From positions 1-64,000 of the IMG/VR virus record IMGVR_UViG_3300023174_000133: a stretch of DNA of 64,000 nt. One strand, given 5' to 3'. Positions 760-39,206 of this stretch are shown here, in pieces. The notes under the pieces were generated by a model. The model was not told the DNA's origin and did no database searches. It saw nothing but the letters and a program-made list of their open reading frames with translations. The position numbers were made by a program, and so were the translations under genes. Origin of the DNA: a virus. Numbering within the stretch: the first letter of the stretch is position 1; each line of letters starts with the position of its first letter.

Positions 760-3700
760 TTAAACTTTAACACGCGTCATATTACCTGACACTGCGAACT
801 TAACAGATGAATACGTTCCGGAAGCCGGAACTCTTGCTGTTATTTTTAAATATCCTGTTGTCGAATCAGCAGAAACGTCGATTTCCCAAGCCTCGGCGGC
901 ACCAGTAGTACTATCCGTTTGTATTGCCAATGAACCTATTAAAGAAGTCGAAGCAGCATTAGCTAATTTAGATATTCCACCTGTTATATCCCACCACGCA
1001 GAATCACCTGTAGTTGTTGAAAGAGCAATAACTTTAATTTTAAACATATACGCGCAATAATTTTCGAGCGTAAAAGTCTTTAGTTCTGATGGATTGAGAT
1101 ATAGCTCCGTGATTACTCCATTCGCAGGAACGGTATTTTGCCAAAGTACAAAAGATTGTTGCGCAATAGCATCGTTTGGTTGACCAGGACCTTCCAAAGT
1201 CAATGCGCCAGCTATACTAACACTACCTGAAGTTTGTAACGTTATATTTCCGCCATCTGATCCTGATATTTGATTACTTATGATGACTAATTCGTTTCCG
1301 AAATAAATGGGCGAACCACCGAATAAAGTACCGGAGATGACAACGTCGCCGCCAAAAACAGCCGTTCCCTGAGTTGAATAGTCAGGAGCACTGGACGGTT
1401 TCGAAGATATATTCCCAGAAACGTAGAAAAATGCATCTTGACCGATGTCAAGCGGAGAATCGATGGAAGTTTCTCCCCCTCTAAAAGCCATCGCACCAGA
1501 TGTATAGATAGAACCATTTGTCGTCGATGAAAAGAATGAATCTCCTGCAACACCTTGTGGGCCTTGAACACCTTGCGGTCCCTGTGGACCTTGAGCACCT
1601 TGTGGTCCTGCAGCGATAGAAGTCCAAGTCAAAACTCCTGAACCATTATTAGTTAAAAATGTTCCTGCTGCGCCTTGCGATTCTGGTAATGTGTAAGTAT
1701 GTGAAGCAAGACTGGACGTAGTCTGTAGCGTTAAAATTCCACCAAAAACGCTTCGAAGTTTTAATGGCGAATTATCAAATACCACACCCTGAGACGAGCT
1801 AATGTTTAAAAGCCCAGAGCCAGCATTTATGAACGTCGTCGATGTCGTATTAGTAGAGCCTATAGATACAGTTTTTGAACCGGCGCCAGTACCAAAACTT
1901 AAACCTTGCGCTGCAGAACCAGTGCCTATGCTAACATCACCAGCCAATGTATTATTTGCTATATTAACTGGCGTATATGTCGCGTCAGTTGCGATATTAA
2001 TACCTGCAACATCTCCGCCTCTAATCGTTACTTTCGATTGACTATTTGTATTTTCTCCGATATTTATAGTCTTCGCACTTGTTCCGCCCGTTCCAACATT
2101 GATTGTTCTTGTTGATGTGGCCGAAGCTCCAACGATATTGACATCACCCGTTCCCGTGTCATTAAATAAATTAAGGACTCCACTCGAAGTATTTGTTACG
2201 TTGATGTTGCCTATAGCTCCATCGGTTGTAATATTGATACCACCTGCTCCACCACTTACATTAGTCGTTGAAGTTGTATTAATAGAACCAATAGATACAG
2301 TTTTCGCTCCGACTCCAGTACCAAAATTTAGAGTTTGAGTAGCAGAACCCGTGCCTATGTTAACTGTTCCTGCCGTTGTATTGTTCGCTATATTAACAGG
2401 CGTTGCAACAGCAGCAGTGGCAATATTCACACCACCCGTTCCACCGTTTATCGTAGTAGTAGATGTAGTGTTAGTAGAACCTACAGAAACTGTTTTCGCA
2501 CCAGCGCCAGTACCAAAACTTAACGCATGCGTCGCAGTTCCTGTTCCAACGTTAACAGTACCAGCGGTTGTACTATTTGAAATATTAACCGGAACAGCTG
2601 CTGCTGATGTTGCTATGCTTACACCACCTGTTGTTCCTGCGTCGATAGTAACGCTGGAGTTGATACTACCTGTGGAACCGATTCTAATATTTTGAGCTGA
2701 TGTGACTGTCGACGTATATCCGATAAGAATATTTTGTTGACCAGAGTTAGAACCGCCAATATTAATATACGGGAATCCAGTTCCCTGTCCAATAAAAATT
2801 GCATTATATCCATCGATTGTTGTGGTTGAAGTTGCATTATTCGAACCTACAATAACAGTTTTATTACCAAGACCTGTTCCAAAGTTAAGCGTCTGAGTAG
2901 CAGAACCCGTGCCAATGTTAACCGTTCCAGCAGTCGTATTATTTGCTATATTAACAGGTGTTGCAACCGCAGCAGTTGCGATGTTAACGGTGCCTGTTGA
3001 ACCAGCAGCTATAGTGACTGACGAACCTGCCACCGTATTATCGCCAATTGTTACTGTCTTAGCGCCAGTCCCACCAGTACCAACGTTAATGGTTCTTGCC
3101 CCCGTTGCTGCAGCGCCAACGATATTGACAGCTCCTGTTCCTGTATCATTAAATAGATTGAGGACACCAGTCGAAGTATTTATTAAGTTAATATTACCTG
3201 CAACACCATCGGTTGTAATATTCACACCACCCGTTCCACCGCTTACATTAGTAGTGGATGTAGTATTAATTGAACCAATAGAAACTGTTTTTACTCCGAC
3301 TCCAGTACCAAAATTTAGAGTTTGAGTAGCAGAACCCGTGCCTATGTTAACTGTTCCTGCCGTTGTATTGTTCGCTATATTAACAGGCGTTGCAACAGCA
3401 GCAGTGGCAATATTCACACCACCCGTCGAACCACCGGCTATAGTGATAGACGAACCTACTGTTGTATTGTCACCGACTATTACCGTCTTAGCACCAGCGC
3501 CGGTACCAAAATTTAGAGCTTGCGTAGCAGAGCCAGTGCCTATGTTAACTGTGCCTGCGACAGTATTGTTTGCTATATTAACAGGCGTCGCAACAGCAGC
3601 CGTAGCGATGTTAACAGCGCCCGTTGTACCTCCGGCTATAGTGACCGACGAACCTGGGATAGTATTTTCACCGATTGTTATAGTCTTAGCGCCAGTTCCA

Positions 3701-37649: not shown

Positions 37650-37867
37650 TTATCTAAATATGGATAGTTCCATTCAAGCTCATTCCACTTTTCGAGCTTT
37701 CCCTCGTTCGTCATGACTGAAAAATACACGAGATCTTCATGACCTATGGTCGGCAGTGGCTCATGAATTTCGACGACGATACCATTTAATCTATCTTTTA
37801 GAAATAGACTGTAATACTGGACTATCTCGCCGACTTTTGGAAGTCGTCGCCCAGTACTATTTTGCAC
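37646..37867 (-). CDS. small SH3/KOW-like hypothetical protein
   Basis: PKVGEIV..GIVVE..VMTNEG. Confidence 0.6.
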   Translation of the reverse strand: MQNSTGRRLPKVGEIVQYYSLFLKDRLNGIVVEIHEPLPTIGHEDLVYFSVMTNEGKLEKWNELEWNYPYLDK

Positions 37868-38519
37868 CCGATTCCTCCTCTAACCTCGCCATGACCCGAC
37901 CTAAAACCGTCTTTCTAATCCCTGGATTGATATGTAGGATGTGTGGCATCATGGTATGACGTATGTAATTCCGGTCGTAATCTGTGTCATCATTAGAAGG
38001 GTCTTGGGCCCATTGGACGCTGTTTTTATTTGCCCATGCGATGAGGTCATCTCGAGTAGTTGAGAGGAAGGGGCGAATAAATCTTTCTCTTTTTACTGGA
38101 ATCGCCTTTGGGTTCCCTCTTAACGAGGTCATGACCCACCATTCTACAGCATCGTCGAGGTGGTGACATGTTACGATAGTGCCTTGTCCCGTAGATTCGA
38201 ACCACTCGTAGCGAGATTTACGCCAGAAGTCTTCAGGTGATTGATTTTTCTCGCACTCTCCGTCGATTTTCCCGACGAGAAGTGGAATATTCCACGTTTC
38301 GCAGTATTTTTTAACGCAAGCCTCGGCTTCTTCTGCGTGTTTTGTCCCGTGGTTGAAGTGTAGGACGGTTAATTCTTTTTTGCCGCGACGTAAAAAATCA
38401 AGACAGGCCATTGAGTCCCTACCACCAGAGACAGCAATGGCCGTTTTAATTGGAATTTTACACGCCAAGTGAATCATTTTGGAGAGCGTGGAAGGGAGTG
38501 ACCGGTGTACTTCGAACAC
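37857..38519 (-). CDS. tilS: tRNA(Ile)-lysidine synthetase, minimal N-terminal catalytic domain
   Basis: PP-loop SGGRDS, HFNHG, R..RY, TCHHLDD, RPFL, DPSN, RNYIRH. Confidence 0.9.
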   Translation of the reverse strand: MFEVHRSLPSTLSKMIHLACKIPIKTAIAVSGGRDSMACLDFLRRGKKELTVLHFNHGTKHAEEAEACVKKYCETWNIPLLVGKIDGECEKNQSPEDFWRKSRYEWFESTGQGTIVTCHHLDDAVEWWVMTSLRGNPKAIPVKRERFIRPFLSTTRDDLIAWANKNSVQWAQDPSNDDTDYDRNYIRHTMMPHILHINPGIRKTVLGRVMARLEEESGAK

Positions 38520-38737
38520 TCTTCTGTCACAATCGCAGGACCACTGTCAGTTTCGAAAATCTCACCAGATTCTGAGCATGAACAGACAACGCATCGATCG
38601 CCACATCGCCAGAAAGTACCAGGTTCGTGTTTGTATCCTCGACTATCAACGCATGCAATGGCATCGATTGCTGTATCGAACGTGTCATTTTCAATCTCTT
38701 GATTCGCGCATGCAAACAAGAAGAGTAACATTGACAT
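38474..38737 (-). CDS. Cys-rich lipoprotein (VWC/pacifastin-like motif)
   Basis: MSMLLFLFAC lipobox; CVDSRG...PGTFWRCGDRCVVCSC..SG. Confidence 0.55.
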   Translation of the reverse strand: MSMLLFLFACANQEIENDTFDTAIDAIACVDSRGYKHEPGTFWRCGDRCVVCSCSESGEIFETDSGPAIVTEECSKYTGHSLPRSPK

Positions 38738-38756
38738 TTTCTTCTCTCTTTTTAAA

Positions 38757-38990
38757 GGGGCCCTGGGTCGCATCACGTCTGGTGCAAACCCTTCCAGTTA
38801 CTTGTGATTAGCTGTCGCCCGGGACCAGGCGAAGTCGAACAAAGACACTCCGACGACCAAGGAGGGATTGGGTACACGCAGCCAATCCCCTGCGACGAGA
38901 ACGGTAAGGAAACAAATCCAAACTCAAAGTGGGACCTTGCGGGGTCGTCGCACTCTTTTCTCGATTTTAGCCGGCAAAAAGCCGACTGTA
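38757..38990 (-). ncRNA. candidate structured non-coding RNA or leader
   Basis: GC-rich gap with six or more stems; G-U pairs and a GCAA tetraloop favour the minus strand. Confidence 0.45.
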
Positions 38991-39018
38991 ACAGTACTAT
39001 TTTATAGAACTATATAAG

Positions 39019-39095
39019 TGGTAGGGCGTCTCGGACTTGAACCGAGAACCCGCGGCTTATGAGACCGCTGCTCTAACCGATTGAGCTAACGCCCT
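39019..39095 (-). tRNA. tRNA(CAT), probably Ile2 (lysidine substrate)
   Basis: GCGGT-CTCATAA-GCCGC, Ile-like D arm, paired 1:72 (not an initiator), CCA; tilS is 500 bp downstream. Confidence 0.88.
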
Positions 39096-39169
39096 TCGAA
39101 ACTAAGTTTTAGCGAATCAACAAATTCTTTTTTATTTCTTCGTGTTCGTTACCAACCAAAGACTTAGAT

Positions 39170-39197
39170 AATATAACTTATTTCTCTCTGCTTTACA
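39170..39197 (-). promoter_or_regulatory. class A promoter-like motif TGTAAA-N16-TATATT
   Basis: Upstream of the tRNA(CAT)-tilS unit. Confidence 0.55.
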
Positions 39198-39206
39198 CGT
39201 CTTTGA

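Follow-up and report, generated by a model that had tools for sequence, protein, structure and literature searches.

We analyzed a 64,000-nt stretch of viral DNA (positions 1 to 64,000 of the IMG/VR virus record IMGVR_UViG_3300023174_000133, hereafter the window) and found that its minus strand carries, between a tRNA(CAU) gene and an operon with a tilS-like gene, an element of ~230 nt (38760..38988) that is very probably a real and functional structured RNA. Read along the minus strand, the order is tRNA(CAU), a 30-nt spacer, the folded stretch, a small lipoprotein open reading frame (ORF) and the tilS-like gene. An earlier note, made from the sequence alone, had described a GC-rich gap between the tRNA and the tilS operon. 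The gap is real: its G+C content is 0.53, against ~0.35-0.47 in the flanks. The note had proposed either a new non-coding RNA co-transcribed with the tRNA or a switch controlling tilS. The part of this proposal that stands is a structured minus-strand RNA of no described family; its role is given below as readings of different probability.

Comparative support for the fold

Full homologues of the element were found in just three metagenome contigs (L016, L017 and L019; nhmmer E = 1e-43 to 1e-50), which together with the window give four full sequences. We compiled a model of 72 base pairs in 12 helices, consisting of the consensus structure plus a pseudoknot added by hand, and evaluated it over 288 cells. 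Standard pairs are formed in 98.6% of the cells, and 19 of the 72 pairs show compensatory changes. As controls, we slid the 3' partners by 1-3 columns: 35-45% of the cells then paired, with 1-6 compensatory pairs. None of 500 shuffles reached the values of the model. RNAalifold run on a plain MAFFT alignment, which was not fitted to the structure, gave compensatory changes at 18 of 70 pairs. Covariation among homologues, which the earlier note had set as a test beforehand, is thus present on both the fitted and the unfitted alignment. Along the element, perfectly conserved islands (runs of 6-16 nt) alternate with segments that vary yet stay complementary, and 46 of the 103 unpaired columns are invariant.

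The strand is also indicated by the pairs. The earlier note had read the G-U wobbles of three stems as consistent with the minus strand only, and the wobbles of the full model favor that strand: of the 288 cells, 284 can pair on it, including 31 as G-U, whereas 253 would do so on the opposite strand. Likewise, the alignment fold reaches -63.97 (covariation term 6.25) on the minus strand against -58.72 (1.0) on the other.

Two points weigh against a functional fold. First, the comparison comprises only four full sequences, which represent three lineages (two of the sequences are close) and are accompanied by strain variants, and our alignment of them (A4) was fitted to the model; because there are only four, they do not allow a statistically sound covariation test. 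Second, folding energy, which the earlier note had proposed to compare with shuffled sequence, was no better than that of shuffles on the sense strand, a result that counts against the element. The sense-strand z-score is -1.03 (279 nt), and the trimmed element scores -0.68, 0.12, 1.07 and -0.59 in the four sequences. The window's opposite strand gave z = -2.0 and -2.9, and the opposite strands of the homologues showed no such signal. As the z-scores are not better than those of shuffles, we dropped folding energy as evidence for the element.

Architecture of the element

All stems listed in the earlier note exist at their places in the window. Two well-supported helices were missing from that list, namely P2 and S1, a stem of the pseudoknot. 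Support is strongest for P2, P3a, S2 (also termed P5) and P9.

From its 5' boundary, the element begins with P1 (38969..38987), a 7-bp G+C-rich hairpin whose stem is invariant in all four sequences and whose loop varies from 5 to 9 nt. It is followed by a three-way junction (38896..38963) in which P2 (38958-38963/38896-38901) encloses P3 (38951-38955/38927-38931), P3a (~38933-38946) and P4 (~38908-38920). The sole two variable positions on each strand of P2 pair with each other, as G-C, A-U or G-U. P3a is the CC-GCAA-GG hairpin of the earlier note, which we keep on the basis of two covarying pairs; its tetraloop reads GCAA in three of the four full sequences and GAGA in the third of the four. 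P4 has one covarying pair.

The next domain (38864..38894) is formed by S1 (38890-38894/38877-38881, 5 bp) and S2 (38882-38889/38864-38871). For S2, which the earlier note had listed, 7 of the 8 pairs have changed on both sides. S1 uses the loop of S2, and the two stems thereby make an H-type pseudoknot, whose outermost pairs may open because its linkers measure just 0-2 nt.

Directly 3' of the pseudoknot lies a 13-nt block (38850..38862) that is invariant in 4/4 sequences. Both RNAalifold and the covariance-model structure place three abutting hairpins here (38795..38858): P6 (38833-38858) shows no variation, P7 (38815-38832) one G-C/G-U change, and P8 (38795-38814) one compensatory pair. This region includes an invariant 16-mer and the conserved 8-nt loop of P8. 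P1, P6 and P7 are near-invariant, so that the comparison neither supports nor refutes these stems.

The last helix, P9 (38765..38791), is a sequence-variable hairpin bearing an invariant 6-nt motif. Its pairing (38765-38772/38783-38791) had been mentioned in the earlier note as a possible pseudoknot with a stem at 38772-38776/38804-38808. The P9 pairing is well supported: all 5 of the pairs counted show covariation in a set of six sequences, to which two contigs that cover the 3' part of the element only (L014 and L015) belong. The 38772-38776/38804-38808 pairing is specific to the window and is not conserved.

Some loops are complementary to one another or resemble part of the neighboring tRNA. 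The P4 loop and the invariant motif of the P9 loop have a 7-nt exact complement in L016, L017 and L019 (A4 columns ~92-98 and 230-236). The complement is absent in the window, so we rejected a P4-loop/P9-loop kissing contact as a general feature; judging from these sequences it could be lineage specific. In the window, the P8 loop (38801-38808) has 5 of 6 letters of the anticodon loop of the adjacent tRNA(CAU) (~39056-39062). We also looked for pairing of the tRNA anticodon or CCA end with loops of the element and found just 4-nt matches that are not conserved.

Alternative pairings

The earlier note had described mutually exclusive pairings. One of them, here called Pa (38943-38950/38851-38858), can form in all four sequences, with energies of -12.4 to -16.9 kcal/mol; its register shifts between sequences and the pairing is kept through wobble-compatible changes. 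The other (38945-38952/38891-38898) was not kept in two of the three homologues: the duplex reaches -13.7 kcal/mol in the window and -13.1 kcal/mol in L016, against -7.1 and -6.1 kcal/mol in L017 and L019, and it clashes with the covarying helices P2, P3 and S1.

In Pa, the invariant 13-nt block pairs with the internal loop of P3. The same block can alternatively form the local hairpin P6, which is weaker (-5.9 to -7.5 kcal/mol). Pa might represent a tertiary pseudoknot or, alternatively, one of the states of a switch. Because Pa and P6 compete for it, the invariant block would be the likeliest moving part of the element.

Strain variants and conservation

Near-identical DNA occurs in aquatic and freshwater metagenome runs. 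We compared Logan contigs of four runs with 38474-39110; these variants did not enter the fold model. A contig of 3797 nt from one run (X2) spans the whole stretch and differs from it by 34 substitutions. Their distribution is uneven: 27 fall in the 264 nt of the lipoprotein ORF and 3 in the 251 nt of the element plus leader (Fisher p = 5.7e-6). The spacer has one substitution and has lost 17 of its 30 letters, and the tRNA has three substitutions.

The three changes within the element of X2 are in the P1 loop, in the P3a tetraloop (GCAA to GCGA, still a GNRA loop) and in a P3a pair, where C38942 is replaced by U so that C-G becomes U-G. The last change and the GCGA loop belong to a strain represented in X2 and in a second run, X4. 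In X19, a freshwater metatranscriptome library, a contig of 155 nt has a UACG loop in P3a and a double change in S1 (38892 G>A and 38879 C>T), which turns a C-G pair into U-A on the RNA; a contig of X4 carries the 38892 change alone and thus shows the U-G wobble intermediate. All the listed variant sites (38977, 38942, 38938, 38892 and 38879) keep pairing or fall in loops, and we note that these sites cover 2 of the 5 differences of the X19 contig and 4 of the 5 differences of the X4 contig that covers the element.

Between L016 and L017/L019, identity is 84% for the RNA, 71% for tilS and 40-42% for the lipoprotein ORF.

Known RNA families and coding potential

A search of the whole window with Rfam 15 (4227 models, gathering thresholds) returned 12 tRNAs and nothing else. 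For the region 38500-39200 at E <= 10, the best scores within the element were at most 19.5 bits, against cut-offs of 39-65, and at E <= 5 no match fell inside the element in L016, L017 or L019. ARAGORN reported no tRNA or tmRNA inside the element and no tmRNA in the window or in L014-L019, while it does find one in a more distant locus, L010. The earlier statement that the element shows no match to tmRNA, RNase P RNA or a T-box is therefore upheld, and the element matches no Rfam family. For the T-box family in particular, RF00230 has no match in the window or its homologues, and no conserved AUG/AUA specifier was seen by eye. In T-boxes, the UGGN bulge covaries with the discriminator base of the tRNA. 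Here, the P7 loop is UGGU in the window and UGGC in L016, L017 and L019; the discriminator base of the upstream tRNA is A in the window, L017 and L019, and L016 lacks the tRNA.

These searches also bear on whether the stretch hides an overlooked gene for a small protein or is a decayed copy of a tmRNA, RNase P RNA, T-box or group I intron. Short open frames do exist on both strands, opposite-strand peptides of 12-24 residues are common to relatives, and L010 has a tmRNA just upstream of tilS. However, stops interrupt all six frames in every one of the four sequences, no frame is open throughout, and the indels among the sequences measure 1, 2, 3, 4 and 10 nt. The plus-strand ORF 38804..39007, whose conservation the earlier note had wanted examined, is not conserved as a protein: 24 residues are common with L019 and they lie over an invariant nucleotide block. 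The same holds for a second opposite-strand ORF, with 12 residues common with L016, so that peptide similarity is confined to the invariant blocks. Given this and the blank Rfam and ARAGORN searches, a missed gene or a degenerate known RNA is highly improbable and is already largely refuted. We also rejected leader-peptide attenuation on AUA codons, as AUA does not occur in the window's element and no small ORF is conserved.

Neighboring genes

The source record is 82.5 kb long and was rated 25% complete by CheckV, and because so long a record is only a quarter of the estimated genome, the virus is a large uncultured phage. ARAGORN finds 13 tRNA genes in the window. The one next to the element (39019..39095, minus strand; Rfam tRNA 68.6 bits) has the anticodon CAU, an encoded CCA and discriminator A, and is presumed to be a tRNA-Ile2, the substrate of the downstream TilS. 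The variable spacer (38989..39018) separates it from the element.

On the other side, a linker (38738..38764) leads from the element to the operon. According to A4 it consists of an invariant AGGGC (38760-38764), an A/U-rich part and a purine-rich ribosome-binding region. The first gene (38474..38737, with an ATG at 38737) encodes a small lipoprotein of 87 amino acids with the lipobox LFAC and no Pfam match. The tilS-like gene (37857..38477) encodes 206 amino acids that include the PP-loop domain only (PF01171, E = 1.6e-39, residues 12-174); relatives of this protein carry the JGI name tRNA(Ile)-lysidine synthase. The start of tilS at 38477 overlaps the stop of the lipoprotein ORF as ATGA.

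Homologous lipoprotein ORFs of 44-91 amino acids are found in L014-L019 (for instance L016:1213-1488, L017:987-1121 and L019:1016-1150). Their middle part is deleted in L017 and L019, and the lipobox, the C-terminal LPxSPK and the stop overlapping the tilS start are always kept. The ORF probably serves mainly for translational coupling to tilS.

Relatives and distribution

The contigs L016, L017, L019, L014 and L015 come from the eight loci returned by a metagenome scan with a TilS alignment; L014 and L015 start inside the 3' part of the element. The TilS proteins of L016, L017 and L019 are 72-75% identical to that of the window, and a protein search found closer TilS relatives, at 69-95% identity. 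We built a covariance model (R1; 264 positions, 70 pairs) on the four full sequences, which score 230-301 bits; the two fragments score 27-34 bits.

In all six contigs that show the 3' side (the window, L014, L015, L016, L017 and L019), the element is followed by the lipoprotein ORF and then tilS on one strand, with 25-28 nt between P9 and the lipoprotein start codon. The 5' side is more variable. The distance to an upstream tRNA(CAU) is 30 nt in the window and L019 but 65 nt in L017, and spacer identity is 39-69% across the relatives compared. L016 has no tRNA upstream and instead encodes a 277-aa zinc-finger protein with a Phage_endo_I domain.

The element was not found elsewhere. The collection of isolated phages gave a match to the tRNA part only. 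The 11 IMG/VR loci that encode TilS relatives at 39-66% identity (L001-L011) were searched by BLAST, nhmmer and R1, and five whole records by BLAST, and the element is absent. R1 found no second copy in the phage's own 82.5-kb record and none in four related records. The invariant 16-mer occurs in 65 IMG/VR stretches, none of them real by nhmmer; a three-block pattern hit one IMG/VR stretch and 12 stretches of genome_contigs, none real by R1; and a two-block pattern had no match in genome_contigs. As far as the collections searched show, the element family appears to be narrow and confined to a small clade of uncultured freshwater jumbo phages.

Some of the other loci have features of their own. 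In L010, a 442-kb IMG/VR contig, the tmRNA gene (2249-2624, tag ANNNANQMLAAA) lies directly 5' of tilS (3001-3657), with tRNA-Thr and tRNA-Pro nearby. Zinc-finger ORFs occur in L016 (110-943; the 277-aa protein, Phage_endo_I E = 2e-8) and in L001 (1878-2843; 321 aa, zinc fingers). They lie directly 5' of the element in L016 and of tilS in L001, at the place of the tRNA(CAU) in other relatives. By analogy, these two ORFs look like free-standing homing endonucleases such as segB of the T4 tRNA cluster.

A possible leader of the tilS operon

Our tentative reading, which falls a little short of an even chance, is that the element acts in cis as the 5' leader of the lipoprotein-tilS operon and shares its transcript with tRNA(CAU). 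We favor it because only the 3' neighborhood and spacing are constant while the 5' side differs between contigs, and because no terminator ends the RNA before the ORF: a scan of the sense strand between element and ORF found none, and the single hit in L016 is the S1 stem itself. The invariance of 46 of the 103 unpaired columns suggests a specific partner.

Under this reading, the element would be made on one transcript with the upstream tRNA(CAU) and would remain joined to the downstream message. Its invariant unpaired nucleotides would bind a small ligand, the tRNA or TilS itself, with the invariant block switching between Pa and P6 as the moving part. The folding state would then set translation of the lipoprotein and, via the ATGA stop/start overlap, the amount of TilS, so that the supply of the enzyme would be coupled to that of its tRNA substrate.

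Several observations weigh against a leader role. We found no conserved terminator, antiterminator or start-site-masking helix among the sequences, which leaves the read-out unsupported; the 3' strand of P2 is pyrimidine-rich and might anneal to the purine-rich ribosome site, but over a trivial match of 4-6 nt. A tRNA or a tRNA-like 3' end stands just upstream in 5 of 6 contexts, an arrangement that suits a free RNA just as well. Tightly packed ORFs with no long leader are seen at twelve further phage tilS loci (L001-L011 and L020), so that control of TilS does not generally depend on the element. For instance, L001 encodes a 207-aa TilS and lacks the element, and for the same reason an RNA cofactor that is obligatory for truncated TilS is unlikely. 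Finally, the X19 contig, although from a metatranscriptome library, is a weak hint of expression and cannot prove transcription.

A more specific version of the leader can be drawn up, to which we give a low probability. In it, the element would be a riboregulator, the first for a tRNA-modification enzyme. It would respond to the phage's tRNA(CAU) in the modified or unmodified state, or else the P8 loop, which resembles an anticodon loop, would bind the truncated TilS; the Pa/P6 switch would allow TilS to be made only while unmodified tRNA-Ile2 accumulates. If true, such a feedback leader would stop the CAU tRNA from being read as methionine.

T-box riboswitches are tRNA-responsive leaders, and the thrS operator mimics a tRNA anticodon arm. 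Read as a leader, the element is like these systems in that a long structured 5' leader precedes a gene whose product acts on tRNA, helices compete at an invariant block, and the P8 loop resembles an anticodon loop. Unlike T-box leaders, it has neither the pair of specifier and T-box sequences nor a terminator. The C of the P8 loop that would be equivalent to C34 is replaced by U in L016.

Boundaries and promoter-like sites

Homology begins sharply at 38988. In a contig of X4 it ends at this same position, and a different tRNA-like 3' end lies 13 nt beyond it. The spacer is thus 13 nt in two strain variants (the X2 strain and this X4 contig), which leaves no room for a conserved promoter and makes co-transcription with the tRNA likely. 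In the window and in L019 the spacer (window 38989-39018) contains a TATAAAAT stretch that we take to recall a T4-type late promoter motif. The motif is not conserved, because a strain with only 3 differences in 251 nt of RNA has lost 17 of the 30 spacer letters.

In bacteria, 5' stem-loops stabilize mRNAs. The element could accordingly be a passive processing or stability element: after removal of the tRNA, P1 and the compact fold would protect the tilS message from 5'-end-dependent decay without any sensing. Two features fit this idea: the 5' limit of homology coincides exactly with P1, whose G+C-rich stem is invariant, and co-transcription with the tRNA is likely. However, ~230 nt with a pseudoknot, a three-way junction and so many invariant unpaired columns far exceed what such protection needs, and purifying selection acts on loops and junctions too. 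We consider a purely passive role quite unlikely.

Part of the conservation might instead be at the level of DNA, with P1 acting as an inverted-repeat operator within a sigma70-type promoter (-35 TTNNCA, -10 TAAAAT) and transcripts starting downstream of it. A sigma70-like -35/-10 pair indeed brackets P1 in the window (38964-38992, spacer 17) and in L019 (753-782, spacer 18), and a TTNNCA-like hexamer stands 5' of P1 in L016, L017, L019 and the X4 variant contig despite unrelated upstream DNA. Nevertheless, such a promoter would need a spacer of 19 nt in L016 and of 20 nt in L017, where the -10 is also weaker, and transcripts that begin ~7 nt past the -10 would lack the 5' strand of P2, which covaries with its partner. 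The motif shows no enrichment in the window, with 1 match compared with 1.9 in shuffles, and the site of the window itself departs from it; promoter-like sites in general are no commoner than in shuffles. A promoter or operator at P1 is therefore improbable.

The promoter-like site has a parallel in phage T4. In the part of PMC3014915 that deals with them, genes e, soc, 49 and I-TevI are described as having long transcripts with structure 5' of the start site and an internal promoter that gives a second form. The T4 leaders are single hairpins that mask the ribosome site, whereas the element is ~230 nt long and has no conserved masking helix.

A possible free RNA and comparison with phage non-coding RNAs

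The element could also be the gene of a free and stable non-coding RNA, excised from a tRNA-containing precursor like RNA C and RNA D of T4 and acting in trans or as a component of some particle; its place 5' of tilS would then be mere synteny. We regard this main rival of the leader as somewhat unlikely, while several features speak for it. In 5 of 6 contexts the element has a tRNA or a tRNA-like 3' end on its 5' side, at a distance of 13-65 nt, and nucleotide conservation is at the level of RNA genes. In T4, rnaD (119 nt) and rnaC (139 nt) follow directly on tRNA-Arg and together take up 264 nt, and the cluster also contains segB. Here as there, a non-coding RNA of similar total length lies downstream of a phage tRNA on the same strand, and a homing-endonuclease-type gene is in the neighborhood, since the endonuclease-domain gene of L016 abuts the element. 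The biological role of RNA C and RNA D (species 1 and 2 RNAs) is given as unknown in the passage on them in PMC3014915.

The likeness to T4 has limits. The T4 RNAs abut their tRNA within 1-6 nt, whereas the element is 13-65 nt from its tRNA and runs into a coding operon, and rnaC has a readable T-arm-like stretch whereas the element has no tRNA-like part. A search of the T4 locus (68000-76000) with R1 and filters off gave no match at rnaC or rnaD, the best score being 5.7 bits elsewhere in the locus, which rules out homology to these RNAs.

GOLLD and ROOL RNAs also support a free RNA by analogy. Where they are treated in PMC5737381, they are described as having complex folds with pseudoknots and multistem junctions and no known function, and as often lying near tRNAs and in prophages. 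Unlike the element, they are 2-3 times larger and widespread. The element has no Rfam match to either of them and always precedes the same ORF pair.

Further points count against a free RNA. There is no terminator or other defined 3' end before the ORF, the spacing to the start codon is constant, and no tRNA-like domain is present that RNase P could use. In the six contexts known, the element was never found apart from the lipoprotein-tilS pair.

Implications

The element appears to be previously undescribed, as it belongs to no Rfam family and we found no description of a tilS leader. Judged by the titles listed, papers on phage tilS or lysidine and on tilS riboswitches include none on an RNA element 5' of tilS, and none on control of the step that modifies tRNA(CAU) into an isoleucine tRNA. 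In the main text of PMC5737381 the words 'tilS' and 'lysidine' are absent, and its 224 motifs were covered here as included in Rfam.

RNAs of such complexity, in which a pseudoknot and a multistem junction occur together with many invariant unpaired bases, usually act by specific binding or catalysis, and new classes are rare. With its sharp limits, the element is a compact and well-delimited target for structure probing. If it is a free RNA, it would join RNAs C and D of T4, which are likewise linked to tRNAs and have been a puzzle for 50 years, as a second and unrelated example. If it is instead a leader, its place between tRNA(CAU) and the enzyme expected to make the isoleucine tRNA that reads AUA could show a virus coordinating a tRNA with its modifier.

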